Shown piece by piece: positions 5,436-39,097 of a stretch of DNA of 42,288 bases. The position numbers and the translations under genes were made by a program. Source of the stretch: a virus (taxonomy: Duplodnaviria; Heunggongvirae; Uroviricota; Caudoviricetes); the IMG/VR virus record IMGVR_UViG_2778260993_000007, positions 1 to 42,288 of that record; one strand, given 5' to 3'. Position 1 is the stretch's first letter; the number at the start of each line of letters is the position of its first letter. The notes under the pieces are model-generated. The model made no database searches, was not told where the DNA came from, and saw only the letters and a program-made list of their open reading frames with translations.

Positions 5436-5512
5436 TTACCGTTGAGGTAATAATTATGCGTATCTGGTTTGGTGTCAATAGATATGAGTTAAAAAAATTA
5501 CCCGTTAGGTAA
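5436..5512. promoter_or_regulatory. Predicted OL operator pair flanking PL
   Basis: Perfect palindromes TTACC-GTTGA-GGTAA (about 5436..5450) and TTACC-CGTTA-GGTAA (about 5498..5512) flank a minus-strand promoter with perfect -35 TTGACA (plus-strand tgtcaa about 5474..5479). Confidence 0.6.
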
Positions 5513-5523
5513 TCGAATAGGCA

Positions 5524-5547
5524 ATAAAAAAGCCGCCATAAGGCGGC
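5524..5547 (-). terminator. Rho-independent terminator after repressor gene
   Basis: Minus-strand stem GCCGCC-TTAT-GGCGGC followed by TTTTTT. Confidence 0.7.
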
Positions 5548-5569
5548 TTACTTACTGAAAAATATGATT

Positions 5570-6154
5570 TTATTGTTTGTTTTTTTCGTTCTGGTTGATG
5601 ACAAATTCAATGTAACTTTCGATCTTTGCCTTCTCTGTTTCAGGTAACAATGCGTAGCGCGAGCGGTCATAGTTGATAGTTGCAGGGTCATGCGGATGAA
5701 TCAGTAGTTCATATCCGTGACGCCCGAATGCAGATGCAACATTCTCCAGGGTGGAAATGGAAACGCTGACCTCATTGTTTAACAGGCGGCTTATTGTCAC
5801 CTGGGCGACGCCGGATGCGCGGTGAAGTTTTCCCTGAGTTGAAAGGTCGCGGCTTTCACTCATCCAGCGTTCCAGGTTGTGAGCTGCCAGCTGACCAATG
5901 TCGCTTGGTCCGACAGGCTGAAAACCTTCCTGAGAAAGCGAGCGATCGATATCAAGCCAGTTACGGGGTTTATTGGCGGCAGCTTCGATTTTTCGCGCAA
6001 CCTGGTCGCCGATAACCTTCTTGCCAAGAGCCCAGCGGTTTACCAGATTTGCCTGAGTTCCAAGTTTTTCTGCCATCCGCGTCTGAACACCATTGAATTC
6101 ACGGTCGATCAAGTCGTTGAGATTTTGCCTGCGGACGTCCTGGATACTTTTCAT
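5570..6154 (-). CDS. Prophage repressor (CI-like), tandem HTH, no S24 autopeptidase domain
   Basis: 194 aa; N-terminal XRE-type HTH (QTRMAEKLGTQANLVNRWALGKK) and a second HTH-like segment; divergent from Cro-like gene with operator repeats between; no Ala-Gly/Ser-Lys peptidase motifs seen. Confidence 0.7.
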   Translation of the reverse strand: MKSIQDVRRQNLNDLIDREFNGVQTRMAEKLGTQANLVNRWALGKKVIGDQVARKIEAAANKPRNWLDIDRSLSQEGFQPVGPSDIGQLAAHNLERWMSESRDLSTQGKLHRASGVAQVTISRLLNNEVSVSISTLENVASAFGRHGYELLIHPHDPATINYDRSRYALLPETEKAKIESYIEFVINQNEKNKQ

Positions 6155-6209
6155 TTTCTGGAAAATCGCCTCATATATGAATCAGTAGATGATTCAATTT
6201 AAAGCAATA

Positions 6210-6283
6210 TTACCCAACAGGTAAATGCACCCCATAGGTAACTATCCTTGATTTTTGTTACCTTATGGGTGAATATTTATTAT
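6210..6283. promoter_or_regulatory. Predicted OR operator triplet and PR promoter
   Basis: TTACC-CAACA-GGTAA (6210..6224), imperfect GCACC-CCATA-GGTAA (6227..6241), imperfect TTACC-TTATG-GGTGA (6258..6272); PR -35 TTGTTA (6255..6260) and -10 TATTAT (6278..6283) ahead of the Cro-like gene. Confidence 0.6.
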
Positions 6284-6308
6284 CTGAAATAAATATCAGG
6301 CAATAGCT

Positions 6309-6539
6309 ATGAGCGATAACGGACATTTCGATTTCAAAAAGCACTGGCTTGCACTTACTCCGGATGAGCGTGAAGCCTTCGCACAGGAAGCCGGAACGAC
6401 GAGTCACTATATCCAGACTCACTTAACAGGTAAGCGCAAAATGCCAGGTAAGGTATTGATGAATGGGCTTTTTAAAGCCTGTAAAACAAGACAATGGCTG
6501 CGCTCAAAAGCAGAACTGGCATACTTCTTCTACTCATGA
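6309..6539 (+). CDS. Cro/CII-like HTH regulator
   Basis: 76 aa; first gene of rightward operon; HTH-like segment (TTSHYIQTHLTGKRKMPGK) resembling lambda CII. Confidence 0.55.
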   Translation: MSDNGHFDFKKHWLALTPDEREAFAQEAGTTSHYIQTHLTGKRKMPGKVLMNGLFKACKTRQWLRSKAELAYFFYS

Positions 6540-6560
6540 TATCCAGCCACAACCCTCTGT

Positions 6561-6586
6561 AGACCGTCATCCGGCGGTCTTTTCAT
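6561..6586 (+). terminator. Putative terminator after Cro-like gene
   Basis: AGACCG...CGGTCT inverted repeat followed by TTTTC. Confidence 0.45.
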
Positions 6587-6595
6587 ATCTATTCT

Positions 6596-6610
6596 CACCT
6601 CAAAGGTAAT
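6596..6610. promoter_or_regulatory. Operator-like site TCACC-TCAAA-GGTAA
   Basis: 9/10 match to the palindrome; between Cro-like gene terminator and next operon. Confidence 0.45.
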
Positions 6611-6689
6611 AAAAAACCAAATCTGGTTGATCTTTTTTTTGTGTCAGCACAAAATAACCGTAATCCCAATACTAATAACAGGGCTTACC

Positions 6690-6890
6690 ATGGAAATCAT
6701 TACACGTATTGATGCCGCAAAGCGCGGACTTAAACGCTACTACACCGGAAAACCATGTAAGCACGGACATGACAGTGAACGCTGGGTTTACAACGGACAC
6801 TGTGTTGAGTGCACCATGGAATCAAACCGTCGCATCAGGGCAGAGATTAAGCAGATCATGATTAATTCCTCCCCACAACATTCAAGCTGA
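6690..6890 (+). CDS. Small zinc-ribbon protein (hypothetical)
   Basis: Start refined to MEIITRID; CxH...CxxC motif (CKHGHDSERWVYNGHCVEC). Confidence 0.4.
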   Translation: MEIITRIDAAKRGLKRYYTGKPCKHGHDSERWVYNGHCVECTMESNRRIRAEIKQIMINSSPQHSS

Positions 6891-6905
6891 TAGCGGAGAT
6901 TAATC

Positions 6906-7697
6906 ATGAGCAGACATGCAACAGATTGGGCCTGGGAGACAGATCCAGGTAGCTCGTCATTAAAGCTCATACTGCTCTCGATGGCTGACAGAGCCGATGA
7001 ATATAACCTCTGCTACCCCAGCATAGAACGACTCGTTAAAGACACTTGTCTGAATAAAAAAACCGTGCAGGCCGGGCTTATATCGCTCATGAAAATGGGG
7101 CTTATTTCAGATACCGGAGAGAGAAAGGGAGCGACAAAAAGAGTGCGGGTTTTCTCTCTTAATATAACCAAAAACGGGAACATTAAAGGCAACCGGGAGG
7201 GGGGCAATGAACCCGAAAACGGTAATGTTACCGAAAACGGGAATATACCCAAAAACGGGATGTTGAATGATCCCAAAAACGGGATCCAGAACCAGTCATA
7301 TAACCGGTCATTTAACCAAGAGAGGGAGAGCAGGACAAAAAACGGGGATTCTGTGTCTCATGACCCCGGCGCAAACAACGCCGTGATGAATAACTTTGTT
7401 CCTCCTGGTGGGCCAGGGCAATTAGGCAAATTTGTCATGCATGAACAATGGCAGCCATCAGATGACTTTCTTCGGAAAAGCTCATTGCAGGGAATCTACC
7501 TGGATAGTCTGCCAACGGCACAGGAACTTGCAGAGTTCAGAATTTACTGGATGGCTGAGGGTAAGGCATACCATCAGGCACAGTGGGAGCAGAAGCTGGC
7601 AAGGCGGCTGCAGATTAGCAGACAGAAGCAATCAACATTACCTGATAACAACGTTCCGCACTGGAATAGCCCTGAAGCATGGGAGGATTTCTTGTGA
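6906..7697 (+). CDS. Replication initiation protein (HTH N-terminal domain, DnaT-like C-terminal domain)
   Basis: 263 aa; N-terminal HTH replication-protein-like region; Asn/Gly-rich middle encoded by DNA iterons; C-terminal region resembles DnaT-type primosomal domain. Confidence 0.7.
   Translation: MSRHATDWAWETDPGSSSLKLILLSMADRADEYNLCYPSIERLVKDTCLNKKTVQAGLISLMKMGLISDTGERKGATKRVRVFSLNITKNGNIKGNREGGNEPENGNVTENGNIPKNGMLNDPKNGIQNQSYNRSFNQERESRTKNGDSVSHDPGANNAVMNNFVPPGGPGQLGKFVMHEQWQPSDDFLRKSSLQGIYLDSLPTAQELAEFRIYWMAEGKAYHQAQWEQKLARRLQISRQKQSTLPDNNVPHWNSPEAWEDFL
7168..7284. repeat. Iteron array (putative phage origin of replication) inside replication initiator gene
   Basis: Five direct repeats CC(A/G)AAAACGG(G/T)A(A/T) at about 7168, 7213, 7231, 7248, 7272; lambda-like placement of ori within the initiator gene. 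Confidence 0.65.
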
Positions 7698-8479
7698 ACA
7701 ACGTTTTTACCGCGATACAAAACCGTGACGGAGAAGCCCTTTCTCGCATGTCAGGTTATGAGCATCAGTACGTCAACAATGACAATGTGGTGAACATGTC
7801 AGCAGAGAGGCTTGTTGATGCCCTTTTCAAACAGCTGAAACAACTGTTTCCGGCGGCAGTGGTAACCAACCTGAAGACGCCAGAGCAGGAAGTCGCTGCA
7901 AAACAGCAGTGGATTGCTGCGTTTGCCGAAGGGGGGATCCGAACCCGTGAACAGGTTTCTGCTGGTATGCGCCACGCCCGCGCCAGTGAGTCTCCGTTCT
8001 GGCCGTCGCCAGGGCAATTCATCAAGTGGTGTAAAGACAGCAAGATGGTTCTTGGCGTCACCATTGACGATGTGATGGCGGAGTTTCACCGGTACAGCAA
8101 GGAAAAAAGTTTATATCCTGGTGGTCCCGAAAGATTCCCGTGGCGACATCCGGTTATGTACTGGGTCGTATGTGATACCCGCCGTGCAATGTATCAGCGC
8201 CAGCTTAGCGAGATTGAGGTTGAGAAACACGCGCGCAGGCTGCTCGATGATTGGGCGAAAAAGGTGGCTTCCGGACAGCAGATACCCGATCCGGTGATCA
8301 GCATACAGGCAAAGCCAGAACCCATGAGTACACCTCCGGACACAGGGAGAGACGTTTACCATCCACCAGGGCGAAGTTTCGGGTGCATGCCTAACGCCGC
8401 CACCCTTGGGGGAATAACACCGGCGCAGTGGCTGATGGAGGAATACAGGCGGGGAAAGGCGGCAGGATTTATCAAGTAA
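7679..8479 (+). CDS. Replication protein P-like helicase loader
   Basis: Clear similarity to lambda P central region (GMRHARASESPFWPSPGQFIKWC vs lambda GMRVARRQNRPFLPSPGQFVAWC). Confidence 0.8.
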   Translation: MGGFLVNNVFTAIQNRDGEALSRMSGYEHQYVNNDNVVNMSAERLVDALFKQLKQLFPAAVVTNLKTPEQEVAAKQQWIAAFAEGGIRTREQVSAGMRHARASESPFWPSPGQFIKWCKDSKMVLGVTIDDVMAEFHRYSKEKSLYPGGPERFPWRHPVMYWVVCDTRRAMYQRQLSEIEVEKHARRLLDDWAKKVASGQQIPDPVISIQAKPEPMSTPPDTGRDVYHPPGRSFGCMPNAATLGGITPAQWLMEEYRRGKAAGFIK

Positions 8480-8484
8480 TACCA

Positions 8485-8505
8485 GCGCGATAGCGCATTT
8501 TTTTA
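8485..8505 (+). terminator. Weak putative terminator after P-like gene
   Basis: Short GC stem (GCGC-GATA-GCGC) followed by seven T. Confidence 0.3.
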
Positions 8506-8516
8506 CGTCTCGATGA

Positions 8517-8593
8517 TTACCTGCTGGGTAATAAAATATTCTAAAATCTATTGATTTCGTGTCTTATGTGGTTTTTAATTACCTCAGGGGTAA
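8517..8593. promoter_or_regulatory. Two operator-like sites upstream of gene 8597
   Basis: TTACC-TGCTG-GGTAA (8517..8531) and TTACC-TCAGG-GGTAA (8579..8593), the second abutting the start codon. Confidence 0.55.
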
Positions 8594-8596
8594 ATC

Positions 8597-8941
8597 ATGA
8601 GAAAACAGATACAGGCTCTTGGTCGACTCAAAACAGGCCAGATGAACAAAACAGAATCTGCGTATTGCCAGCACCTTGAGCAGCGTAAACGTGCAGGGGA
8701 AATCGCCTGGTATCGATTCGAGGGTATCAAGCTGCGGTTAGCTAATAACACGTTCTATACGCCCGATTTCGCTGTGATGCTCGCCACCGGCGAGATGGAA
8801 CTGCACGAAGTGAAAGGTTTCTGGACCGACGACGCCAGGGTGAAAACCAAAGTTGCCGCAGATCAGTATCCGTTCCGAATCATCGGGGTAACGGTTAAAC
8901 CAAAGAAAGCAGGTGGTGGCTGGAACATCGAAGAGTTCTGA
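8597..8941 (+). CDS. DUF1064-like phage protein (possible nuclease fold)
   Basis: 114 aa; pattern YTPDF...ELHEVKG typical of DUF1064-type proteins; operator-like site abuts its start codon. Confidence 0.5.
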   Translation: MRKQIQALGRLKTGQMNKTESAYCQHLEQRKRAGEIAWYRFEGIKLRLANNTFYTPDFAVMLATGEMELHEVKGFWTDDARVKTKVAADQYPFRIIGVTVKPKKAGGGWNIEEF

Positions 8942-9002
8942 ATCGACGATCTTTTTAGTTATCAATGTAATCAATAAGTTATGTGGATAAGCGAGGGTAA
9001 AG

Positions 9003-9518
9003 ATGGAAAGTAATATCAAAGGGTTAGTTTCCGCCGGGCATGAGATGGCTTCGGAACTGAAAGCAGAATGTGGTGCCGTTGATATGCGCAGTGTGGCAAA
9101 GCTGATCAGCGATTTGGCAACGCAACTGGAAGTGCAACTGGTGCGTGCTAATGCGCTGGCCGAAGACCAACAGAAAGCGATTGAGTCAATTAAGCAGGCT
9201 GATTCGGCTGTTAAGTTGGCACACGAGAAGTTTTCGGCGCTGGCGGCGGAGAATGAACTGGCTCGTAAGGCAGTTCAGGCATTCTGCGATGTTGTTGGCG
9301 ACAACACCGAGGTTATCGCTGAGGTGGTTGGGCGAGATGGCGTTCTGGTTATTTTGGAGGCCATGAAGGCAACAGGAAATATGTCAGCCACCGATGCTTT
9401 CCTGGATGAAGTACGGGCGCAGGGGGTGGAGATGTTTGCGGAGTGTGCATACACACTTGAACATCATGATCACGCAGTAGCTTTTGCCGCCGAGCTACGT
9501 AAAGGAGGCAACCAGTGA
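9003..9518 (+). CDS. Hypothetical protein
   Basis: 171 aa ORF with GAGGG RBS; no recognisable motif. Confidence 0.5.
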   Translation: MESNIKGLVSAGHEMASELKAECGAVDMRSVAKLISDLATQLEVQLVRANALAEDQQKAIESIKQADSAVKLAHEKFSALAAENELARKAVQAFCDVVGDNTEVIAEVVGRDGVLVILEAMKATGNMSATDAFLDEVRAQGVEMFAECAYTLEHHDHAVAFAAELRKGGNQ

Positions 9519-9814
9519 CTGTATGTCTTATTGATAAACGTCGACGTGGGCAACAAATACCATCTGTTGAAATGCCGAATCACACATGGTTTTGCGTACT
9601 TGATATCGATGGTATGGATACGTTGATCGATACTCGTCATTACTGCGATACCGCAACAGCTACTCCTGCAAAAGCAAAGAAAATGGCTGCTCTGATAGAA
9701 AACTGGACTCCACCTGATGGTTGGTGCAATGGGAATGATCGAGATTGGCACGAAAAAATGAAGGGCTACATCTGCGATTTCTTACGTAAATGCAACGGAT
9801 TCAGGGTGATGTGA
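9515..9814 (+). CDS. Hypothetical protein
   Basis: 99 aa, translationally coupled to upstream gene. Confidence 0.45.
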   Translation: MTVCLIDKRRRGQQIPSVEMPNHTWFCVLDIDGMDTLIDTRHYCDTATATPAKAKKMAALIENWTPPDGWCNGNDRDWHEKMKGYICDFLRKCNGFRVM

Positions 9815-9815
9815 C

Positions 9816-10634
9816 ATGAGCAAGATTGACTATCAGGCACTGCGTGAAAAGGCAGAGAAAGCAACGTGTGGGGTGTGGTCGCTCGAATATGGAGAGAGCC
9901 GATTTGATTGTGATGATGCGCTAATTCATCGTGACGTTGTTGGATATCTTCCCATTTGCAGAATTGAAGGAGCGCATCCTGAAAGCGGTTTCGATGAAGA
10001 TTTCCAAATGGAACAGCAGGCCAATGCTGAATTCATCGCCGCAGCCAGTCCAGCTACCGTGCTGGCACTGCTGGATGAACGGGAAAGAAACCTGCAATAC
10101 ATCAAAAGCCGCGATCAGGAGAACGAGGATATTGCGCTAACGGTAGGGAAGCTGCGTGTTGAGCTTGAGGAAGTAAAACAACACGCTGAAGAATTATCAG
10201 AAACCAACGCTGTTCGTAACCAATGGCGGCCAGATATTTGCCCAATAACCGGACGTGCATTTTTTATGTGGATTGAGCATCCAACATTGGGAAATGTGCC
10301 GACATATGGTGGCCCATTAGATAGTTACACCATTCCAACAAAGGACGGTGACGGTGAGTTTTCATGTGAGCGTTACGATCATGATTTTGGCGGTTGGGTA
10401 GAAAGCGAATGTCTTGGGTTATATCTGATTGATGATAGAGAACAATGCAGGGTCTACGAACTGGAGGAACGCGTTAAGGAACTGGATGCTCGGGAAATAT
10501 CGCTCCCGGAACGTAGCAGCATGCTTCATCGAACAGATTTTCACGATGATTACCAAACGGTAATGGCATACAAAGTTTCTGAAGTCATCGATGCAATCCG
10601 CGCCGCAGGCATTCGCATCAAAGGAGGTGAGTAA
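9816..10634 (+). CDS. Ead/Ea22-like family protein
   Basis: 272 aa with segment EFIAAASPATVLALLDE characteristic of Ead/Ea22-like prophage proteins. Confidence 0.6.
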   Translation: MSKIDYQALREKAEKATCGVWSLEYGESRFDCDDALIHRDVVGYLPICRIEGAHPESGFDEDFQMEQQANAEFIAAASPATVLALLDERERNLQYIKSRDQENEDIALTVGKLRVELEEVKQHAEELSETNAVRNQWRPDICPITGRAFFMWIEHPTLGNVPTYGGPLDSYTIPTKDGDGEFSCERYDHDFGGWVESECLGLYLIDDREQCRVYELEERVKELDAREISLPERSSMLHRTDFHDDYQTVMAYKVSEVIDAIRAAGIRIKGGE

Positions 10635-11169: not shown

Positions 11170-11170
11170 T

Positions 11171-12315: not shown

Positions 12316-12589
12316 CCTACAACTTGCCGTCAAAGGTGAATACTTCGATGCCATGATTCGTGGAGAGAAAACGGAAGAGTATCGCCTGTGTAATGACTAC
12401 TGGAATAAGCGAATTATGTTCCGCGAATATGACCGTCTGATTATCACAAAGGGATATCCGAAGCGCGACGACTCCAGTCGCAGAATAGACGTCCCGTATG
12501 AAGGATATGAAATCAAGACAATCACACATCCCCACTTCGGCGATAAACCGGTAAAGGTGTTCGCTATAAAGGTAAATATTGATGGCTAA
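12308..12589 (+). CDS. ASCH domain protein
   Basis: 93 aa; N-terminal pattern (LAVKGEYFDAMIRGEKTEEYR) typical of ASCH/PUA-like domain. Confidence 0.55.
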   Translation: MANLQLAVKGEYFDAMIRGEKTEEYRLCNDYWNKRIMFREYDRLIITKGYPKRDDSSRRIDVPYEGYEIKTITHPHFGDKPVKVFAIKVNIDG

Positions 12590-12920
12590 ATCAGCAGCAG
12601 AGCGCAAAGCCGCTCAGAGAGCCAGACAAGCTGCATCCGGTGTACGTAAGCTGGAGATTGTGCTTGATGCTCAGGAAATTGAAATGCTGGAGCGTAACTG
12701 TGCCACGCGTCGCCCCGGGCGTGTGCCTTACGAATTTGGTGAGTATATTGCGTTACTTATCCGCCAGGATGATGCACGTGTGCGCGGGCGTATAAAATCG
12801 ATCAGCAGAAAACGTTGCGGTAAGTGCGGCGAGAGAGTTCCAGTTAATTCATGCCCGTGTAATGGTGACTCGCAATGCTGGGTGACTAAAGGCTGGCATG
12901 AAACGAAATTAATAGTGTGA
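12579..12920 (+). CDS. Hypothetical zinc-binding protein (last gene before late region)
   Basis: 113 aa with CGKCGERVPVNSCPC motif; basic N-terminus; followed by palindrome GTGACATGTCAC and a terminator. Confidence 0.45.
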   Translation: MMAKSAAERKAAQRARQAASGVRKLEIVLDAQEIEMLERNCATRRPGRVPYEFGEYIALLIRQDDARVRGRIKSISRKRCGKCGERVPVNSCPCNGDSQCWVTKGWHETKLIV

Positions 12921-12928
12921 CATGTCAC
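12917..12928. repeat. 12-bp perfect palindrome GTGACATGTCAC (copy 1 of 3)
   Basis: Exact 12-mer, also at about 15182 and 33060; overlaps stop codon of gene 12579..12920. Confidence 0.6.
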
Positions 12929-13006: not shown

Positions 13007-13039
13007 TTACCACAACGGTAACTATTACCACGGTGGTTA
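13007..13039. promoter_or_regulatory. Operator-like sites at start of packaging/late region
   Basis: TTACC-ACAAC-GGTAA (13007..13021) and imperfect TTACC-ACGGT-GGTTA (13025..13039) overlapping the RBS/start of the terminase small subunit. Confidence 0.5.
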
Positions 13040-13635
13040 TGATGTCTGCTGAACCTAAAACCTATAAACGCAAATCAACGCAATTTAAGCCACTAACAGC
13101 AATGCAGGAGGCTTATTGCCAGTCATACATCAAAACGCCTGAAAACCAGACTCAGGCAGCGATTAACGCAGGATTCTCCCCAAATACAGCGGCAGTTAAA
13201 GCCAGTGTCATGATGCGCGATGAACGCATTCAAAAACGGATTGCCGAGTTGATGGAGGAGCGCAACAAACGAATGCGCGTCAGTGCTGATTACGTTCTCA
13301 TGCGCCTGGTGGAGATCGACCAGATGGACGTGATCGACATCCTCAACGACGATGGGAGCCTTAAACCAATCCGTGAGTGGCCTAAAATCTGGCGCACTAC
13401 GCTTAGTGGCTTTGATCTGTCATCGACCATCATGAACATGAACGAGGATTCGATAGAGACAATCCTCAAAAAAATTAAATGGCCTGACAAGGTGAAGAAC
13501 CTTGAGCTGATTGGTAAGCATGTTGATGTCAACGCGTTCAAAGAACGTCTGGATGTTAATGTGAATGTGACAATTGCTGATCGCATAGCAGCAGCCAGGA
13601 AGCGACTCAAAGAACGTCAGGATGGTAATCAGTGA
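13039..13635 (+). CDS. Terminase small subunit
   Basis: Start refined to MMSAEPK; conserved small-terminase segment (AMQEAYCQSYIKTPENQTQAAINAGFSP); directly upstream of large terminase. Confidence 0.7.
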   Translation: MMSAEPKTYKRKSTQFKPLTAMQEAYCQSYIKTPENQTQAAINAGFSPNTAAVKASVMMRDERIQKRIAELMEERNKRMRVSADYVLMRLVEIDQMDVIDILNDDGSLKPIREWPKIWRTTLSGFDLSSTIMNMNEDSIETILKKIKWPDKVKNLELIGKHVDVNAFKERLDVNVNVTIADRIAAARKRLKERQDGNQ

Positions 13636-15181: not shown

Positions 15182-15193
15182 GTGACATGTCAC
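15182..15193. repeat. 12-bp perfect palindrome GTGACATGTCAC (copy 2 of 3)
   Basis: Exact 12-mer just beyond the 3' end of moron gene 15198..15569. Confidence 0.6.
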
Positions 15194-15767: not shown

Positions 15768-15844
15768 TGGCGTGGCATGCAGGATTCGAACCTGCGACCA
15801 ACCGCTTAGAAGGCGATTGCTCTGTCCAACTGAGCTAATGCCAC
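15768..15844 (-). tRNA. tRNA-Arg (anticodon UCU)
   Basis: 77-nt cloverleaf on minus strand: acceptor GTGGCAT/ATGCCAC, D-arm GCTC...GAGC, anticodon loop CTTCTAA, T-arm GCAGGTTCGAATCCTGC, 3' GCCA; resembles but is not identical to E. coli argU. Confidence 0.8.
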
Positions 15845-16165: not shown

Positions 16166-16180
16166 TTACCTGAAAGGTAA
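16166..16180. promoter_or_regulatory. Operator-like site upstream of head gene operon
   Basis: TTACC-TGAAA-GGTAA about 90 bp upstream of gene 16271. Confidence 0.5.
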
Positions 16181-16270
16181 TAATTCGCGCGTTAAATGTC
16201 AACTGTCTACGATAAATAAATCATATGTGGTTAAATTGGTAATGATTTAATTGCGTACGGAGTCATTGAT

Positions 16271-30913: not shown

Positions 30914-31441
30914 TCAATGGCTGTTTATGGCTTCTAAAGAATCTTCTGCACTTATCGGCAAAGCAATAGCATCCTTGTTAGATGTGCTATTGCTTTCCAG
31001 AACGATGGAAATCCAATCCTCTTGGTTTTTATTAATTGTGCTGACAGCCATGATAGCATTCAAATCGTTTTTATATATTTCTGATCGAATAAGACCTTTC
31101 CTGAATAATTTAGTTAAGCTTTCCGCTATCGACATCGCACGAATGCTAACTTTACTAAGCTCAATGACGTCACTACCTGCGACTTTAGCGTGTTGAGAAA
31201 GAGCCATCAAAGCTATATGCGAAAATGTTTCTTCTTTTGAAAAACCATTACTTAAAGACAGGAGTGATACACTAGCTCCGTATGGGGTGAGCTTATATCC
31301 TGATACATTCAATGCATGCTCTACAAAGATAAGAGCATCAGTTGTAGAAGCATGGATATTGTTACTTTTTTGTTTTTTCGCAATAAATAAAAAAACAAAA
31401 TTAATAATTACGATGCCGACAATGATTAAGAAAACTTCCAT
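30914..31441 (-). CDS. Membrane-anchored hypothetical protein (accessory)
   Basis: 175 aa; N-terminal TM helix MEVFLIIVGIVIINFVFLFIA; AT-rich; promoter, operator and first codons duplicated in inverted orientation at 35151..35200. Confidence 0.6.
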   Translation of the reverse strand: MEVFLIIVGIVIINFVFLFIAKKQKSNNIHASTTDALIFVEHALNVSGYKLTPYGASVSLLSLSNGFSKEETFSHIALMALSQHAKVAGSDVIELSKVSIRAMSIAESLTKLFRKGLIRSEIYKNDLNAIMAVSTINKNQEDWISIVLESNSTSNKDAIALPISAEDSLEAINSH

Positions 31442-31481
31442 TGCTTTTCCTCACAATAACATTACCTTAAAGGTAATATTT
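31432..31481. repeat. Inverted repeat IR-1, left copy
   Basis: About 50 bp (operator, promoter, RBS, ATGGAAGTTTTCT) is the reverse complement of 35151..35200. Confidence 0.7.
31462..31476. promoter_or_regulatory. Operator-like site upstream of membrane protein gene 30914..31441
   Basis: TTACC-TTAAA-GGTAA; part of 50-bp inverted repeat shared with 35151..35200. Confidence 0.5.
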
Positions 31482-31994: not shown

Positions 31995-32328
31995 TTTACA
32001 CACCTTAACCAAATACGGTTGATTTTAATATTTCTAAGCGCTTATCATTACCTTTTCGGTAAATTTACATCGCATTCCTCTTGTGCCATAGTAATCGGGC
32101 ACTGGCAAAATCCAGTGCCGGGATTGGTCTCCCGGATTACTACAGAGGCACATATGCCGCATAAGCGGTTTTTTTATGTGTAAAGCGCACCTATTCTATG
32201 GTGGGCTGTGTGGGGGCACCGAAAGGTGCGCCGGGTCCTTTGTAGCCGGTAAGACCAACTCTGCACAGTTCACCACCATCTGATTGGTCTCAGCGGTGGT
32301 GATTAACCTAACTACAAAGGTGATCGCC
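31995..32328. repeat. Inverted repeat IR-2, left copy (antirepressor leader)
   Basis: About 330 bp, roughly 85-90 percent identical to the reverse complement of 34790..35125. Confidence 0.65.
32048..32062. promoter_or_regulatory. Operator-like site in leader of BRO-type antirepressor gene
   Basis: TTACC-TTTTC-GGTAA adjacent to putative -35 TTTACA. Confidence 0.5.
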
Positions 32329-33021
32329 ATGAATACCAAACCTTCCATCTTTTCCTTTGAGTCATCCTGCCAGATCCGTATGTTCATGATTGACGGAGAA
32401 CCTTGGTTTGTCACCAAAGATGTGTGCAATGCTTTGAATATTGATGTTACACAAGCGAGAAAACTTGATAAAAAAGGCTGGAACAAAAAGGGGCTGTATT
32501 CAATACAGACCCCTGGTGGAATACAAGAACTATCCATCGTTTCAGAATCAGGTCTCTACATCCTTATTCTGCGTTGCAAAGAGGCAATGACTGAGGGAAC
32601 GAGAGCATTCAGATTTCTTGAATGGGTTACAGGTGAGGTTCTTCCTCAGATCCGCCGCACCGGAAGTTACATTAAAAACTCGCTCCCGCAGGAAGAACGC
32701 ATAAAGATGGTTGCCGACCAGGTAGCCAACGCCACGGCGTCAGCAGTAATGCAGGCGATGAAGATAGAGAACAAAACCTACAGCGCCCCGCTGAAGCCCG
32801 GCTACCGCAGTTTGATTCACTCGCCGTCTGGTGTTCTCGGCCTGACGGAGAACTCACTGCTGATGAATCTGCTGAACCAGTTACAGGAAGACGGGCACGA
32901 CGTATCGGGCGCGGCGGCGGAGCTGACCACCATGTTCTGCTACATCGTCGGTGTGAGCAAATGCCTGCGTGATATCCAGACGCACGCGGAGTACATCAAC
33001 GACAAGGCAGGGTTCTTCTGA
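32329..33021 (+). CDS. Antirepressor, BRO-N domain plus shared C-terminal domain
   Basis: Start refined to MNTKPSIF (AAGGTGA RBS); BRO-N-like N-terminus (FMIDGEPWFVTKDVCNALN...GEVLPQIRRTGSY); C-terminal about 80 aa identical to C-terminus of 34133..34789. Confidence 0.7.
   Translation: MNTKPSIFSFESSCQIRMFMIDGEPWFVTKDVCNALNIDVTQARKLDKKGWNKKGLYSIQTPGGIQELSIVSESGLYILILRCKEAMTEGTRAFRFLEWVTGEVLPQIRRTGSYIKNSLPQEERIKMVADQVANATASAVMQAMKIENKTYSAPLKPGYRSLIHSPSGVLGLTENSLLMNLLNQLQEDGHDVSGAAAELTTMFCYIVGVSKCLRDIQTHAEYINDKAGFF
32770..33021. repeat. Inverted repeat IR-3, left copy (shared antirepressor C-domain coding region)
   Basis: About 250 bp nearly identical to reverse complement of 34133..34385; the few differences seen are synonymous. 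Confidence 0.7.
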
Positions 33022-33059: not shown

Positions 33060-33071
33060 GTGACATGTCAC
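33060..33071. repeat. 12-bp perfect palindrome GTGACATGTCAC (copy 3 of 3)
   Basis: Exact 12-mer between BRO-type antirepressor stop and its terminator. Confidence 0.6.
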
Positions 33072-33354: not shown

Positions 33355-33987
33355 TTAATGCAGTTTATCTTTGCTTATAACCAGTAGTCTGTGGGTATGC
33401 ACATCTTTATCACTGCCCCAACAGAAATCAGCCCACTGGCTATAGAAATCATCCCATGATGTCATGAAGCTAAGAGGTCTATCTTCTTCAGAGCCATCTG
33501 AAACGTATACATTATATCCTGGGGTGTTTATAGCCCAAGAAATCATTCTTTCCCAGAATCTTCTCCCATCGATTGTTTGTTGCTCATCAGATACAACGAT
33601 CGCATATTGCTCTAGGAAGAACTGAAAAAAAATCTGAGGCAAACCATGAACAGCACGGTCATGAATAACATTAGGCGTACGCCATACCATGATCTGCGTA
33701 CATGTTCTTTTGGCTTCGACGATATCTTCCCGAAAGATTAACTTAACCGCATACACCGTTTCTGGAGTATCGCTGGTAGTAATCATTCTGTAATGATCGC
33801 CATTACAAGATTTTACAAGGCGATAACCATAAGGTGTTGTGAATCCCGGAAGAACGAAATCAACCACACCTTTCGCTAAGTAGCTTTCGGTGTGACTAGT
33901 GTTCTTCTCAGACATGTTCAGTTTTCTATCGAAATCTGCTTCTGGGATAATGTATGGCATCGCTTTTCTTGTTGTATTTGTTCTCAT
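33355..33987 (-). CDS. Hypothetical protein at centre of antirepressor island
   Basis: 210 aa; own operator-like site upstream (about 34047..34061) and strong terminator directly after stop; no recognised domain. Confidence 0.55.
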   Translation of the reverse strand: MRTNTTRKAMPYIIPEADFDRKLNMSEKNTSHTESYLAKGVVDFVLPGFTTPYGYRLVKSCNGDHYRMITTSDTPETVYAVKLIFREDIVEAKRTCTQIMVWRTPNVIHDRAVHGLPQIFFQFFLEQYAIVVSDEQQTIDGRRFWERMISWAINTPGYNVYVSDGSEEDRPLSFMTSWDDFYSQWADFCWGSDKDVHTHRLLVISKDKLH

Positions 33988-34046
33988 TTCGTCCTCCCAT
34001 GTTTGGCTACAGGACGCGTTTTGAAGGGAAGATTAAAAATGCTTTC

Positions 34047-34061
34047 TTACCCTTGAGGTAA
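34047..34061. promoter_or_regulatory. Operator-like site upstream of gene 33355..33987
   Basis: TTACC-CTTGA-GGTAA in the 145-bp gap between AntA-type gene stop and next start. Confidence 0.5.
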
Positions 34062-34132
34062 TAGTACGCTATTCACCCCCAGTCTGCAATCTGTACAGAA
34101 TTATTTAAAGGCACGTCCCTGTGCCGCCGCCG

Positions 34133-34385
34133 TCAGAAGAACCCTGCCTTGTCGTTGATGTATTCCGCGTGCGTCTGGATATCACGCAGGCATTTGCTCA
34201 CACCAACGATGTAGCAAAACATGGTTGTCAGCTCCGCCGCCGCGCCCGATACATCGTGCCCGTCTTCCTGCAACTGGTTCAGCAAATTCATCAGCAGTGA
34301 GTTCTCCGTCAGGCCGAGAACACCAGACGGCGAATGAATCAGGCTACGGTAGCCGGGCTTCAGTGGGGCGCTGTATTCTTTTTTG
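34133..34385. repeat. Inverted repeat IR-3, right copy
   Basis: See left copy. Confidence 0.7.
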
Positions 34386-34789
34386 TCTTCCAGCTTGATC
34401 GCCTCCATAATGGCGGGCATGAAGCCTGACAAGACCTTCTCCACTTTTGTTTCTTGTTGTCTTAAACGTTTCTCGCATTCAATGAAGTAGCGTCGCACCT
34501 GGCGACCTTTTTCGTTACGCTCGACCATCGCCAGCTCTTTGGCTGTATCAAGGGTGAGGTGGTACTCTTTGCGGTTGTGGCCGCCTCTACCAGATGTTTG
34601 CTTTCCCAAATTGGAAAGCAAAATATAGTCTTGATTTTCAATGAATTCGTATTCTGATATGCGATTTGTAATCCATGCTGCAAACACCTTTTTAACACCT
34701 AAAAAAGCGTGCAGATCGCGGGCATTACAAAGTAGGGCTGTTTCGTTAGATATAGTGCCGTTGAATACGGGGATGAGTTGAGCGTTCAT
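34133..34789 (-). CDS. Antirepressor, AntA/AntB-type N-terminal domain plus shared C-terminal domain
   Basis: 218 aa; AntA-like N-terminus ([34 protein letters not shown]); C-terminal domain identical in protein sequence to that of 32329..33021. Confidence 0.7.
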
Positions 34790-35125
34790 GATGGCGTCTC
34801 CACTTAGCGAATTACATCACCACCGCTGAGACCAATCAGATGGTGGTGAACTGAACGGAGTTGGTCTTACCGGCCTAAGTGGTACCGGCGTCCTTTCGGA
34901 CCCCCATTCAGCCCACCATAATTCTGGCATGACTGTGCTATACGCATAAAAAAACCACGTCTGGCGTGGTATGCGCCACTTAGTAATCCGGGAGACCAAT
35001 CCCGGCACTGGATTTTGCCAGTGCCCGATTACTATGGCACAAGAGGAGTGCAATGTAAATTTACCGCAAAGGTAATGATAAACGCGAAGAAATATTAAAA
35101 TCAACCGTATTTGGTTGATTGCGTT
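34790..35125. repeat. Inverted repeat IR-2, right copy (antirepressor leader)
   Basis: See left copy; ends at the AntA-type gene start codon. Confidence 0.65.
35061..35075. promoter_or_regulatory. Operator-like site in leader of AntA-type antirepressor gene
   Basis: TTACC-GCAAA-GGTAA; inverted counterpart of the site at 32048. Confidence 0.5.
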
Positions 35126-35150
35126 TAACGCTTGATCACCTGAAAGCAAG

Positions 35151-35200
35151 ATATTACCTTTAAGGTAATGTTATTGTGAGGAAAAGCAATGGAAGTTTTC
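35151..35200. repeat. Inverted repeat IR-1, right copy
   Basis: Reverse complement of 31432..31481 by direct comparison. Confidence 0.7.
35154..35168. promoter_or_regulatory. Operator-like site upstream of membrane/zinc-ribbon gene 35189
   Basis: TTACC-TTTAA-GGTAA, 21 bp before start codon. Confidence 0.5.
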
Positions 35201-35917
35201 TGGATAGTTGTTGGTGTGGTTGCGGTGATTATTTACGTTATCAACCAGAACAAGACTAAGATCTCTGATCGTACGGTCGTTAATTATAACAAAACGATAA
35301 AGACCGAAGATGGGGAGATAACGATTAATCGTACACAGGTGATAGAACACACCTCTACTCAGTTTCAAAAAACTGGAGGTAATGCGCCTAATATTTCCGC
35401 ACCTCCTGCTTATGATAGTGCGGTAATCCAGACATATTATAAACAGCAGGAGTTAGCAAAAGAGAGGCAACTGATTCAGCCAAAGCCGTTTACAGCTGAG
35501 CTTCCACCTGGAGTGTCAATGCGTCCGGCATATCATGGAAGATTCCCTGGTGATGACATATCGTCTCAGTCATCTAAAAAAGCACCTCAGGCAGTATCAG
35601 AGCCAGCAAGAATACCTTCTGTATCGCCGCCAAAAGAAGAATCAGCTAACAGAGTTTCAAGTGGTAGCAAGCAGTGCTTGCGATGCAGAATAAACCTACC
35701 ATATGAAAAATTCAGGAAATCGTCAAAAAATCCAGATGGATTGACTAAGTGGTGTGCAAGGTGTCTCGATGGCCCAAAGAATACACGCCATATGAAGTGG
35801 TGCCCAATTTGTAATGTCCGCAGAAAACGAACAAGCTTTTACCCTAATAATCAAAATGCGGATGGCTTAATGGCATGGTGCAAAACGTGCTGGGACGAGC
35901 ACAAAGCGAAACGATAG
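35189..35917 (+). CDS. Membrane-anchored protein with tandem C-terminal zinc-ribbon repeats
   Basis: 242 aa; N-terminal TM helix MEVFWIVVGVVAVIIYVI; two about 35-aa repeats each with CxxC...DGL..WCxxC. Confidence 0.6.
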   Translation: MEVFWIVVGVVAVIIYVINQNKTKISDRTVVNYNKTIKTEDGEITINRTQVIEHTSTQFQKTGGNAPNISAPPAYDSAVIQTYYKQQELAKERQLIQPKPFTAELPPGVSMRPAYHGRFPGDDISSQSSKKAPQAVSEPARIPSVSPPKEESANRVSSGSKQCLRCRINLPYEKFRKSSKNPDGLTKWCARCLDGPKNTRHMKWCPICNVRRKRTSFYPNNQNADGLMAWCKTCWDEHKAKR

Positions 35918-35939
35918 GCCGCTCTTGCGGCCTTTAAAT

Positions 35940-36197
35940 TTACCGGGTTTGTTTTCGTAATTGTTCGGCACAATAGTCGAGATGTGTTTGCAGATCCCGC
36001 ATAGACATCTGTGAGCTGGTGACGTAGTTAATCAGTGCAGTCAGTTCGGCAAGTGGGCCATCGACATTAAATCCATCCTTATCGAGCTCCCGGAGTAATT
36101 TCATCAAGTGCGATCCCTCCACCAGTGATCTGACGCCTCCCGGCGTGTGAATCCTTTCGGTAAATCCGTCTTCCAGTGGATAGTGATACTGCTGCAT
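35940..36197 (-). CDS. Small protein homologous to the antirepressor C-terminal domain (candidate SOS-induced antirepressor)
   Basis: About 85 aa from ATG with GGAGAAG RBS (track ORF extends to 36215); aligns with the shared antirepressor C-domain (TPGGVRSLVEGSHLMKLLRELDKDGFNVDGPLAELT...MRDLQTHLDY); LexA box immediately upstream. Confidence 0.6.
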   Translation of the reverse strand: MQQYHYPLEDGFTERIHTPGGVRSLVEGSHLMKLLRELDKDGFNVDGPLAELTALINYVTSSQMSMRDLQTHLDYCAEQLRKQTR

Positions 36198-36218
36198 CTT
36201 ATCTTCTCCATGCAATAA

Positions 36219-36234
36219 CTGTATAAATATACAG
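36219..36234. promoter_or_regulatory. LexA (SOS) box
   Basis: aaCTGTataaatatACAGta: CTGT-N8-ACAG with AT-rich spacer matching the enterobacterial LexA consensus TACTGTATATATATACAGTA at most positions; about 22 bp upstream of start of minus-strand gene 35940..36197. Confidence 0.65.
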
Positions 36235-36273
36235 TATCAAATAATTTATTTGCTATCCAGCACGTTTTGCGAA

Positions 36274-36288
36274 TCACCTGAAAGGTAA
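36274..36288. promoter_or_regulatory. Operator-like site TCACC-TGAAA-GGTAA upstream of tail fiber gene
   Basis: 9/10 match; in divergent intergenic region between LexA-box gene and tail fiber gene. Confidence 0.45.
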
Positions 36289-36392
36289 TATCTGTTCGTA
36301 TTTATGGGTTGTCTATCCATATATGGTTTTTCAGGTAATAGAATAACCGGATATGCGGCGCAACGGGTGCTGCGACTATCTGGAGATTTAAC

Positions 36393-38927
36393 ATGACGGT
36401 CTCAACCGAAGTTGACCACAACGAATACACCGGTAACGGTGTTACAACGACATTCCCTTATACCTTCAGGATTTTCCAGAAATCTGATTTAGTAGTGCAG
36501 GTTGTTGACCTGAACGAGAACATCACAGAGCTGATTCTTGATACTGATTACATAGTCACTGGTGCGGGAGGGTATAACGGCGGCAATGTAATTCTGTCGA
36601 AGGCGTTGGTTAACGGTTATCAGATTTCTATATCAAGAGAGCTACCGGTTACGCAGGATACCGATCTGCGCAACCAGGGTAAGTTCTTCGCTGAGGTGCA
36701 TGAAGACGCATTCGATAAACTGACGATGCTGATACAGCAGGTTAGAAGTTGGTTCAGGTTGGCTCTGCGTAAACCATCATTTATTGCTAATTATTATGAT
36801 GCTTTGAACAATTATATTCGTAACCTGAGAGATCCCAGATTTCCGCAGGATGCGGCAACAAAAAATTACGTGGATACGCTTGCTGGTAGCAATCTAAGCA
36901 AAACTCTTCGCGTTCCTGAATCAATACCTTCCTTACCTGATGCTATTGAAAGAGCAAACAAGATGGTTGCTTTTGATAATGATGGTAATCCATTTGTCGT
37001 ATTACCACCATCTGGATCTGCCTCAGACGTTCTAATTGAATTAGCTAAACCTGATGGGTATAAGTTAATTGGTGGATTAGAAAACAGATTATATATATAT
37101 GATATAAGCGCACTAGACGGTGAGCGGAATAGTGATCAGCTTAATGCTATATTTTATAAGTATAAAGATACACCAATAAAAATATACTCAAGCGTGCCAC
37201 TAACTTTCACCATAGATAAAGAAACACATCTATATGGTGATTTTGATTTGAGTAATTGTACTTTCCACTTAACAAACGGAAAGGTTGTGTATAAAGATGA
37301 AAGGGATGATGATAGTTATATAAAGGAAGTTAATATATCAACATACCCATTGAACGAATTAACCTCAGTTTTTTCTTGTGTTGAGGATTTAACAGGGTGG
37401 GGTAATTCGCTCGTCAAAATAATAAGTCCAACAGAGGTTGATCTCTATAGGTTGCTTGGTGGTGTATTCACCCCAAGATATAAAGGTGAAGTGAACTTTA
37501 TGACTAAGTCAGGGGAATTGGCTTACAGTCTTAAAAATACTTACAACGACCCCGTAACTTGTACGTTATTTAAGCTACCAACTAAGCGTAATAAAATTGT
37601 ATTGCCGCGTTTCACTGGTCAATTTTCACGCTATGCTTTTGATATCCAACGTTCTTTAGTTGATGTTGAGGTTGTTTACTTTAATGACATGGGGATGACA
37701 GCTACAGATTCTAATATTTTTGGTAGCTCTACCACCTACGGAGTTAACTGGAGATTAACGAGTGCGGGTATTACGCAGACGGATAATAATTCTCGTTATA
37801 CCGTAGCTATGGAGTACACCCTTAAACATACTTTTATCGGCTGCGAAGTGGGTAAGGGGTGGAGGTCTATTGACGGCAACTATTGCAGGGATGTGGTTGT
37901 GAGAGACAGTAATCTTGATAGCTTCCACATGCACTATGGGTGCTCAAAGATTCTTGTTGATAATTGCCGGATACCTGGAGGCGTCATGGTTGGTACTGGG
38001 GCGTTCGACGAGGCCACACAGATCATCAATTCTCACATAGGGCCGTTTGGAGTACGTACGGATTACGGTGAACATAAAGGTGATTTCATAGTCCGTGGGG
38101 GATCCGTTCGTATTCCAGAGGGTTCATCCGGTTTGGTGGATATGATTTTGTGTCGTCCAGACAATGTTATCGCGTCTGGGAATCCTGTTCAGCCGCGCAC
38201 TTTACATCTTCCGAAGAATATAATTGTACAGACGAATATATACTGGCCTTCTGAGGTAACACTCAATATTTTATCATTTAAAAATAACTTTAAAACACAG
38301 CCATCACCTTTGCGTGACTTTAAAATGCCGTCATTGATAGATTTTACTGGTAGCACTTTTAATGGTAAAGCCGCAAGATTTGAGTTGGCAATTTCATATC
38401 ATGATGCATCTACAAGAGATATTCCTGTAATTAAATTGACTCCAGCTAAATCAACTGGATGTAAAGTTGTATGTTATGTTGGATACCTGGATGAGTATGC
38501 ATCATGCCTTTATGGTCTTGAGAGCAATATGGATATTGCATATATGAATATCACATCAGGAATGAATAGGAGTTACATCAAGCATGATGGTGGTGTATTA
38601 CGTAGGTTTGTAGGCTATTCTGGTGGAAACACATATATGCTTGGCAGTGTTTATTTTGACAAAATGGCCATAGATTGGGATGTGAGTAACAACCTTGTTT
38701 CAGGATTTATGTCAGTGTCTGACTGTCTTATAGATGGTTCGAGAGCTAAGGGATCATCTTCATCTAAGCCGATAGTAAATACGTATGTACATAGGTCGGC
38801 AAATAATATATGTCATGAGATAGTGGCAACTGACTCAAGGGATGTTGTCGATAAAAAATATGCCCTTTGCAGTAGAGAGGGAACCGCAGGGAACTTCTCA
38901 ACAGGTGAGATACCTATAACATTTTAA
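36393..38927 (+). CDS. Tail fiber / tailspike protein (T7 gp17-like N-terminal adaptor, divergent C-terminal receptor-binding region)
   Basis: 844 aa; N-terminus (EVDHNEYTGNGVTTTFPYTF) resembles podovirus tail-fiber N-terminal domain; C-terminal two-thirds AT-rich. Confidence 0.75.
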   Translation: MTVSTEVDHNEYTGNGVTTTFPYTFRIFQKSDLVVQVVDLNENITELILDTDYIVTGAGGYNGGNVILSKALVNGYQISISRELPVTQDTDLRNQGKFFAEVHEDAFDKLTMLIQQVRSWFRLALRKPSFIANYYDALNNYIRNLRDPRFPQDAATKNYVDTLAGSNLSKTLRVPESIPSLPDAIERANKMVAFDNDGNPFVVLPPSGSASDVLIELAKPDGYKLIGGLENRLYIYDISALDGERNSDQLNAIFYKYKDTPIKIYSSVPLTFTIDKETHLYGDFDLSNCTFHLTNGKVVYKDERDDDSYIKEVNISTYPLNELTSVFSCVEDLTGWGNSLVKIISPTEVDLYRLLGGVFTPRYKGEVNFMTKSGELAYSLKNTYNDPVTCTLFKLPTKRNKIVLPRFTGQFSRYAFDIQRSLVDVEVVYFNDMGMTATDSNIFGSSTTYGVNWRLTSAGITQTDNNSRYTVAMEYTLKHTFIGCEVGKGWRSIDGNYCRDVVVRDSNLDSFHMHYGCSKILVDNCRIPGGVMVGTGAFDEATQIINSHIGPFGVRTDYGEHKGDFIVRGGSVRIPEGSSGLVDMILCRPDNVIASGNPVQPRTLHLPKNIIVQTNIYWPSEVTLNILSFKNNFKTQPSPLRDFKMPSLIDFTGSTFNGKAARFELAISYHDASTRDIPVIKLTPAKSTGCKVVCYVGYLDEYASCLYGLESNMDIAYMNITSGMNRSYIKHDGGVLRRFVGYSGGNTYMLGSVYFDKMAIDWDVSNNLVSGFMSVSDCLIDGSRAKGSSSSKPIVNTYVHRSANNICHEIVATDSRDVVDKKYALCSREGTAGNFSTGEIPITF

Positions 38928-38932
38928 AAATA

Positions 38933-38964
38933 AGGGAATGTAATAATACATTCCCTATTATATT
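38933..38964 (+). terminator. Terminator after tail fiber gene
   Basis: 8-bp stem AGGGAATG...CATTCCCT followed by ATTATATT. Confidence 0.5.
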
Positions 38965-39082
38965 GGTGTCCTTAGTCAGTTTCAGGCGCATGGCGGCAGA
39001 AACAGATAATCGCCCCACTATGCGGGTGGTTCTGATTTAAGTGACTTTAGTACGCAACAGATATAAAACAAATTTTTCTCTA

Positions 39083-39097
39083 TTACCGTTAGGGTAA
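39083..39097. promoter_or_regulatory. Operator-like site upstream of lysis cassette
   Basis: TTACC-GTTAG-GGTAA followed by repeated element GTTTTTTTATGTGTAAAG also found in the antirepressor leaders. Confidence 0.5.

Follow-up and report, generated by a model that had tools for sequence, protein, structure and literature searches.

The stretch of DNA considered here, IMG/VR virus record IMGVR_UViG_2778260993_000007 over its positions 1 to 42,288 (42,288 nucleotides; hereafter the window), contains 18 perfect or imperfect copies of the palindrome TTACC-N5-GGTAA, which we infer to be operators of the immunity repressor Rep (194 amino acids; minus strand, 5570–6154), with a probability of about 85 % for a reading in which binding itself is predicted by sequence comparison. 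The window is assigned to an Escherichia coli prophage of the genus Uetakevirus (the ε15 group, phiV10/ε15-type), and its palindromes to the Rep–operator network of phages ε15, phiV10 and SPC32H. Because the GenBank record of ε15 assigns the same motif, in the same places, to the same protein, the finding is already known and constitutes a re-discovery, and the novelty that an earlier note, made from the letters of the window, had implied for the dispersed layout does not hold.

A pattern search of the whole window returned exactly 13 perfect matches, starting at 5436, 5498, 6210, 8517, 8579, 13007, 16166, 31462, 32048, 34047, 35061, 35154 and 39083. At least 14 had been announced previously, but the list given then itself held 13 coordinates, every one of which was recovered. 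Dinucleotide-shuffled sequences contained a mean of 0.01 perfect copies, and none of 100 shuffles reached 13. A relaxed search added four one-mismatch copies at positions kept in relatives, namely 6258 (TTACC..GGTGA), 6595 and 36274 (both TCACC) and 13025 (TTACC..GGTTA), as well as a single two-mismatch copy at 6227; the imperfect copies noticed before at 6227, 6258 and 13025 were thus found again, as was the TCACC variant at 36274, whereas the other TCACC variant lies at 6595 and not at 6596. A further one-mismatch copy, at 39325, falls within the holin-like gene 39201–39605 and is absent at that position in relatives; chance alone would yield about one match of this kind. Scanning with a symmetrised weight matrix, which had been proposed as a check, cleanly separated 16 sites scoring 18.5–26 from all other positions of the window, none of which exceeded 13.8.

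All 18 sites lie outside genuine genes. Their placement was examined under a deliberately greedy mechanical model of open reading frames (ORFs), by which 93 % of the window was called coding; even so, nine of the 13 perfect sites were outside every ORF, and the remaining four fell in mechanical ORFs judged not to be genes, comprising a 5' extension of the small-terminase gene, two ORFs overlapping isrK/C4 RNA genes and one antisense to the first gene of the leftward promoter PL. Homologues of the small terminase match a start at 13042, leaving the site at 13007 outside that gene. The intergenic-only placement described earlier is therefore upheld. The palindromes are able to form stems of 4–5 bp, and they could in principle function in RNA, as terminator, processing or attenuator hairpins, rather than as protein-binding DNA. 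Such stems are, however, weak (−3 to −4 kcal/mol) and lack a U tract, their sequence is invariant and displays no covariation, the conserved variants alter one half only, the few 'compensated' hairpin variants sit in coding DNA, and many of the palindromes coincide with the likely transcription start or precede it. On account of the weak stems, the missing U tract and the lack of covariation, this explanation was rejected, and its probability is close to nil.

The ε15 record (AY150271.2; a Salmonella phage) carries seven features labelled protein_bind / repressor / lysogeny, which are located upstream of the small-terminase gene, upstream of gp3/portal, in the gap between gp19 and the tailspike gene, at the left operator region OL (three features) and before the nin-like region (one feature), and all seven read as (A)TTACC-N5-GGTAA(T). 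Perfect copies number 11 in ε15, ten in SPC32H, nine in each of Tyrion and Klebsiella phage BUCT711, eight in phiV10 and 13 in the window, and TTACC-N5-GGTAA is by far the commonest 5-N-5 inverted repeat in each relative genome counted. In alignments, the sites of the terminase, head, ant/tailspike and lysis operons, of OL, of the right operator region OR and of nin line up despite diverged flanks; the positional conservation suggested as a check is thus borne out, the motif being kept at orthologous positions in every Uetakevirus examined. Membership of the window in this network is further indicated by the homology of its Rep and by the presence of an antirepressor gene, ant, with its LexA box. 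A text search of the literature for the palindrome consensus gave nothing relevant, the primary ε15 and SPC32H papers being outside its reach. In describing the ε15 genome in 2007, Kropinski and colleagues reportedly presented this motif, a hyphenated inverted repeat of 17 bp, as the operator on which the major repressor gp38 acts.

A different possibility is that the motif is bound by a host factor and is widespread on the E. coli chromosome. Nothing specific speaks for it; the ε15 annotators did mark predicted IHF sites beside some of the ε15 operators. A 100-kb sample of the E. coli chromosome held zero perfect copies, with one-mismatch copies at chance level, and the motif is found in phages of Salmonella, Klebsiella and Enterobacter, and in an N4 form in Pseudomonas phages, always together with the repressor domain. 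The absence of any perfect copy from the 100-kb sample led to the rejection of a host factor, to which we attach scarcely any probability.

The repressor itself is 100 % identical to the Rep proteins of phiV10 and ZX5, 78 % identical to that of Tyrion, 45 % to those of Klebsiella phages and 42 % to those of ε15 and SPC32H, and it matches SPC32H Rep (PDB 5D50_A) over its full length (residues 1–190, E value 4e-42), across both the N-terminal HTH domain and the C-terminal domain for tetramerisation and Ant binding. The best-conserved part comprises the N-terminal 70 residues, including the invariant NLVNRW, in agreement with an operator that stays the same in Reps of 42 % identity. A Pfam scan of Rep detected helix–turn–helix families (HTH) only and no S24 peptidase domain. 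In SPC32H, Rep has been reported to bind palindromic DNA as a tetramer in which the DNA-binding pairs come from different dimers, and which is disassembled by the tetrameric antirepressor Ant (PMC9638917), while the C-terminal domain of SPC32H Rep adopts the loop-forming TetDloop fold (PMC9986798). Overexpression of the ZX5 repressor abolished free phage and lowered the holin and endolysin mRNAs by 99.97–99.99 % (PMC9782041), a result consistent with control of the lysis operon by Rep.

The N-terminal domain of Rep also occurs in another repressor architecture. The cI protein of Pseudomonas phage PseuP_224 combines a LexA-like S24 C-terminal domain with an N-terminal domain 39 % identical to that of Rep (E value 1e-12), and the complete PseuP_224 genome contains TTACC-N4-GGTAA exactly three times (10906, 11768 and 11807), two of the copies shortly preceding cI and the third shortly following it. 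When viral contigs were searched with full-length Rep, only 100 %-identical loci emerged, and the scan was repeated with the Pseudomonas N-terminal domain leading. In these contigs, all 19 Pseudomonas-type loci with the domain carry TTACC-N4-GGTAA at −73 or −74 from the cI start; a second copy is present at −34 in all of them except the most divergent one (L107), and a copy just downstream of cI (about +822 to +1015) is present in 18 of the 19. The Cro-like ORF of PseuP_224 has no similarity to the Cro-like protein of the window. Since the half-site tracks the N-terminal domain of Rep and the Cro-like ORF is unrelated, Rep is supported as the primary binder, with its N-terminal domain as the putative reading head. 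The difference in spacer, N5 versus N4, goes with different oligomerisation domains, and the Pseudomonas S24-cI phages and Uetakevirus Rep constitute a natural pair for studying the co-variation of oligomerisation domain and spacer. Of the earlier claim that one repressor dimer binds all the sites, the repressor is favoured by the ε15 annotation and by this co-occurrence, whereas the simple dimer is not, the SPC32H homologue being tetrameric.

The arrangement of the operators relative to each other and to promoters is in keeping with repression by Rep. At OL, the perfect operator OL1 (5436–5450) adjoins the −10 hexamer of PL and covers about −7 to +8, and the perfect operator OL2 (5498–5512) is located upstream of the PL −35 hexamer. 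PL (TTGACA-17-AATTAT; minus strand, 5450–5478, with the −35 at 5478–5473 and the −10 at 5455–5450), a leftward promoter with a perfect TTGACA previously placed between the sites at 5436 and 5498, was confirmed, and its −35 is kept in all six relatives. Between the divergent genes for Rep and the Cro-like protein there are indeed three sites, as had been reported: a perfect operator closest to rep (6210–6224), a two-mismatch copy 17 bp from it (GCACC..GGTAA; 6227–6241), the ortholog of which is perfect in ε15, SPC32H and BUCT711, and a one-mismatch copy (GGTGA; 6258–6272) within the spacer of the rightward promoter PR, downstream of its conserved −35, TTGATT. The TCACC variant at 6595–6609 lies directly after the terminator 3' of the cro-like gene and before the replication genes. 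Further downstream, the nin pair consists of a perfect operator directly after a terminator (8517–8531) and a second perfect operator (8579–8593) that precedes the DUF1064 gene 8597–8941, and the terminase pair consists of a perfect operator (13007–13021) upstream of the true start of the small-terminase gene and a one-mismatch copy 18 bp from it (13025–13039) that overlaps the ribosome-binding site. The OL and nin pairs are spaced by exactly 62 bp centre to centre in the window and by 62–63 bp in every relative, and the OR and terminase pairs are 17–18 bp apart. The same two classes dominate in 61 further loci, with 95 pairs at 62–63 bp and 59 at 17–18 bp.

Many of the operators overlap a −10-like hexamer by one base, the initial T of TTACC doubling as the final T of the hexamer, and a −35 match is found 16–18 nt away. 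This register is observed at PL, at the downstream nin operator, where a conserved TTGATT is positioned 17 nt upstream of the conserved −10 TTTAAT, at the terminase operator, which adjoins a conserved extended −10 (TGnTACTAT), at both isrK/C4 promoters (TTGATT-18-TATCAT) and at 34047 (TACTAT); leftward −10-like hexamers are likewise in register at 16166 and 36274. Promoter matches were given weight only when accompanied by a −35 match, conservation in relatives or a fixed operator register, and −10 matches were given restricted weight because the flanking A of ATTACC adds to the −10 score. The register of operator and −10, like the position of the PR operator within the spacer, is ordinary occlusion geometry.

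The remaining component of the switch is an antirepressor. The small antirepressor Ant (minus strand, 35940–36197) is a close homologue of SPC32H Ant (PDB 5D50_E, E value 7e-47), and its gene is divergent from the tailspike gene, as in other Uetakevirus genomes. Immediately upstream of ant, at its promoter, is a canonical LexA box, AACTGTATAAATATACAGTA (CTGT-N8-ACAG; 36219–36238), which is kept in relatives. As Rep lacks an S24 domain, induction would not proceed by RecA-mediated cleavage, and the LexA box marks the predicted route, from SOS to Ant, that takes the place of repressor cleavage.

These observations suggest the following mechanism. Two N-terminal HTH domains of Rep would contact each 15-bp palindrome and read its TTACC half-sites. 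By homology with SPC32H, Rep would be a tetramer with two DNA-binding pairs, so that one tetramer could bridge two operators, which would explain both the pairs at 62–63 bp (OL and nin) and those at 17–18 bp (OR and terminase); a distance of 62 bp corresponds to six helical turns and would suit a single tetramer that holds one operator on each side of a promoter. RNA polymerase would be kept out by bound Rep wherever an operator starts on the last T of the −10 or sits in the spacer, that is, at PL, PR, the nin promoter, the terminase promoter, the two isrK/C4/antirepressor modules and several accessory cassettes. Upon DNA damage, the box upstream of ant would be freed from LexA, Ant would strip the Rep tetramer from the DNA, and all operator-controlled units would be de-repressed together, with the Cro-like protein possibly occupying the same sites later in infection.

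Several observations weigh against Rep as the common regulator. The Cro-like HTH protein (76 amino acids, phrog_35; plus strand, 6309–6539) is conserved even better than Rep; the drop measured by quantitative PCR upon overexpression of the ZX5 repressor may be an indirect effect; generic sigma-70 scans are not enriched overall, their match counts being at or below those of shuffled sequence, with 11 matches against 19 expected; and at 16166, 36274 and 39083 the operator centre is located 38–50 bp upstream of a second conserved box, CATATRTGGTT, so that the head, tailspike and lysis operators are found at about −70 from the rightward −10-like hexamers, a position that does not correspond to occlusion. 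The first of these points bears on the possibility that the main reader of the palindrome is the Cro-like protein, or another phage regulator, and not Rep. The Cro-like protein is 58–84 % identical across relatives, and its invariant HTH stretch (AGTTSHYIQ.HLT, with one position T/V) would suit an invariant DNA motif; moreover, in lambda-type switches Cro uses the operators of the repressor. Nevertheless, Pseudomonas phages that share the Rep N-terminal domain also share the half-site, with a Cro-like ORF that is unrelated, the ε15 annotators gave the sites to the repressor, and palindromic sites are those that SPC32H Rep is reported to bind (PMC9638917). Primary recognition by a protein other than Rep is accordingly considered very improbable, while the Cro-like protein may be a second binder of the same sites, like lambda Cro.

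The position of the late operators is the more substantial difficulty. The head operator (perfect, 16166–16180) is located upstream of the gp3/portal/head operon, the TCACC variant at 36274–36288 between ant and the tailspike gene, and the lysis operator (perfect, 39083–39097) 118 bp upstream of the lysis cassette, which extends from 39201 onward; at the position orthologous to the last, phiV10, SPC32H and Tyrion have a TCACC variant and ε15 a perfect copy. In all six Uetakevirus genomes, the box CATATRTGGTT is found 30–41 nt downstream of the operator at these three operons, and in the window it occurs at 16222–16232 (head), 36318–36328 (tailspike) and 39129–39139 (lysis), always on the plus strand. 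Its core, CCATATATGG, is itself palindromic, and a more distant variant is present at 8563–8573 in the nin region. The box occupies the spacer of a promoter-like element with a weak −35, and after 6–8 nt it is followed by a −10-like hexamer (TAATGA, TAATAG/TAGAAT or TATGAT). Because the operators sit near −70, it is conjectural that Rep acts directly on the head, tailspike and lysis operons; of the genome-wide control put forward earlier, the dispersed operators stand, and direct repression at these three places is no more than possible.

It is conceivable, at somewhat less than even odds, that Rep binds all the sites yet does not directly repress the three late operons. Their operators would then serve divergent leftward promoters (of the tRNA-Arg and gp66-like gene, and of ant) or anchor loops, and the rightward late operons would use a CATATRTGGTT class of promoter that needs an early-encoded factor, the candidates being a PerC-like protein (2559–2858) and a ribbon–helix–helix (RHH)/zinc-ribbon protein (12582–12920). 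Leftward −10/−35 matches do adjoin the operators at 16166, where a −10-like AATTAT is directed at tRNA-Arg and the gp66-like gene, and at 36274, where the promoter-like element reads TAGACA-17-GATATT; the box is kept at the same three operons in six genomes with weak −35 matches; and the window encodes both a protein of the PerC family and a 'transcriptional regulator' of phrog_536. On the other side, the ε15 record labels the sites ahead of these operons as repressor sites, repressor overexpression silences holin and endolysin, possibly indirectly (PMC9782041), and no factor has been tied to CATATRTGGTT, the structure model of one candidate being too poor to interpret. The tRNA-Arg gene (anticodon TCT; minus strand, 15768–15844) is situated between the terminase and head operons, downstream of the leftward promoter-like element that adjoins the operator at 16166, and SPC32H has a tRNA-Arg in the same place.

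The candidate factor encoded at 12582–12920 (plus strand; 112 amino acids) is a conserved protein in the position of a Q gene, the last before the small-terminase gene, and is assigned to phrog_536. It has an RHH-like strand–helix–helix N-terminus and a C-terminal Cys cluster (CGKCG..CPC..C; zinc-ribbon-like, Cys4), with no Pfam family and no PDB sequence match even at an E value of 10. The best 120 of its 719 homologues, all at least 76 % identical, are annotated 'hypothetical' throughout, and its AlphaFold model is poor, with a mean predicted local distance difference test (pLDDT) score of 57.5. No Q antiterminator family was detected in Pfam and PHROG scans of Rep and of the nin-region and left-operon proteins, which agrees with the apparent absence of a lambda Q-type antiterminator noted previously, and no terminator was found in the short late leaders; a Q mechanism is therefore unlikely. 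We offer only as a doubtful proposal that the late operators are half of a two-part module with CATATRTGGTT, in which a late regulator such as the 12582–12920 protein would read the box and Rep at about −70 would gate that regulator or bridge operators.

The accessory segment at 30.9–36.3 kb differs from phiV10 and holds five of the 13 perfect sites. It includes two inverted copies of a module resembling P1 immI, in which an operator-bearing promoter is followed by an isrK RNA, a C4 antisense RNA and an antirepressor-type gene. In the rightward copy (plus strand, 32099–33021), the perfect operator at 32048–32062 adjoins the −10 TATCAT (−35 TTGATT) ahead of isrK (32099–32175), C4 (32194–32280) and a Bro-N antirepressor-type gene (32284–33021); in the leftward copy (minus strand, 34133–35024), the perfect operator at 35061–35075 adjoins an identical −10 and −35 ahead of isrK (34948–35024), C4 (34839–34923) and an AntA-type antirepressor gene (34133–34789). 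Both pairs of isrK (RF01394) and C4 (RF01695) score above the Rfam gathering thresholds, at 61–75 bits. phiV10 has one related leader only, upstream of p23. A P22_AR_N fragment is also present in the segment.

The modules are surrounded by an inverted pair of paralogous membrane-protein cassettes, 30914–31476 (minus strand) and 35154–35917 (plus strand), which share an identical stretch taking in the operator, the leader and the first codons, and whose products have the same N-terminal membrane helix (phrog_21690 and phrog_6762). In the first, the perfect operator at 31462–31476, missing from phiV10, is located 21 bp upstream of the membrane-protein gene 30914–31441 (minus strand), and in the second the perfect operator at 35154–35168 is located 21 bp upstream of the gene 35189–35917 (plus strand), its leader being paralogous to that of the cassette at 31462. 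The perfect operator at 34047–34061, which adjoins the leftward −10-like TACTAT, lies 60 bp upstream of the gene 33355–33987 (minus strand; phrog_1349, annotated as of unknown function). Each accessory cassette therefore sits behind its own predicted copy of the resident repressor's operator. PADLOC returned no matches for the operator-controlled accessory genes.

The assignment of the window to a Uetakevirus prophage follows from its collinearity with phiV10, which begins at the integrase start (position 1) and extends as far as the lysis cassette (about 41125), and from the host DNA at the end of the window. phiV10, an Escherichia phage, and several sibling phages are about 97 % identical to the window in the immunity region. 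The last 1.1 kb (41126–42288) corresponds to E. coli yfgI/yfgH on the minus strand, a stretch found in 5422 of 5426 complete E. coli genomes, and a strong terminator (41150–41177) precedes the host DNA; the right end thus marks the junction of prophage and host, near guaA. A one-mismatch copy, TTACC-N5-GGTAT, is present about 57 bp upstream of the integrase gene in phiV10 (26870), ε15 (26882), SPC32H (26960) and Tyrion (28568), and the corresponding position is not visible in the window because the window opens with the start codon of the integrase gene. A third palindrome, GTGACATGTCAC, is repeated at 12917–12928, 15182–15193 and 33060–33071 (three copies against 0.14 expected), in each case at the 3' end of an operon, beside or shortly before a terminator-like hairpin, and ε15, SPC32H and Tyrion likewise have it ahead of the terminase terminator.

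The analysis settles the identity of the element as a phiV10/ε15-type prophage with an SPC32H-type Rep–Ant–LexA switch and predicted operators at nearly every transcription unit. It opens no new question, because annotators of ε15 recorded this layout years ago and P1 and L5 already provide examples of dispersed operator networks. It may be of use in annotation, since the records of phiV10 and of phiV10-like phages and prophages examined carry no annotation of these sites, and the operator map predicts that the accessory cassettes are silent in the lysogen. What is added to the earlier knowledge is that the TTACC half-site tracks the Rep N-terminal domain across two repressor architectures (N5 versus N4), that the pairing at 62–63 bp is strictly conserved, that the accessory cassettes absent from phiV10 each appear to stand behind a resident operator of their own, and that the late operons bear a second conserved, unexplained box.

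Among known systems, ε15, phiV10 and SPC32H/SPN1S share with the window both the core motif (often ATTACC..GGTAAT) and its positions at OL, OR, nin, terminase, head, ant/tailspike and lysis, and the window differs from phiV10 and ε15 in having extra copies on cassettes that phiV10 lacks, namely the second isrK/C4/antirepressor module and three genes of unknown function. The C1 repressor of phage P1 presents a similar picture of one repressor with many scattered operators, one of them ahead of a C4 RNA and an antirepressor (immI, c4-icd-ant), and in the window a C4 gene is found twice between an operator-bearing promoter and an antirepressor gene, with control of this type being predicted. The operators of P1 are asymmetric 17-mers read by C1, whereas the sites of the window are palindromic and are predicted to be read by the HTH domain of a tetrameric Rep that is unrelated to C1. 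The likeness to lambda lies in the divergent orientation of rep and cro, in the three operators that separate them, in the two or three operators at PL and in the overlap of operators with promoters, and it extends to the Pseudomonas cI(S24) phages, with their homologous N-terminal domain and TTACC-N4-GGTAA sites, which in PseuP_224 are confined to OR/OL. In contrast to such an OL/OR-only arrangement, and as the earlier note had maintained, the window has at least 11 high-scoring sites beyond OL and OR; it further differs from lambda in that Rep is devoid of an S24 autocleavage domain, no Q family was detected in the scans described above, and induction is predicted to be based on an antirepressor. 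In mycobacteriophage L5, dozens of sites for the repressor gp71, termed stoperators, are distributed through the early and late regions; they are asymmetric 13-mers located mostly within transcribed regions, and they block elongation in an orientation-dependent manner. Dispersed sites of the L5 type are contrasted with lambdoid phages in one report (PMC1934351). The sites of the window, unlike those of L5, are symmetric and are located at promoters.

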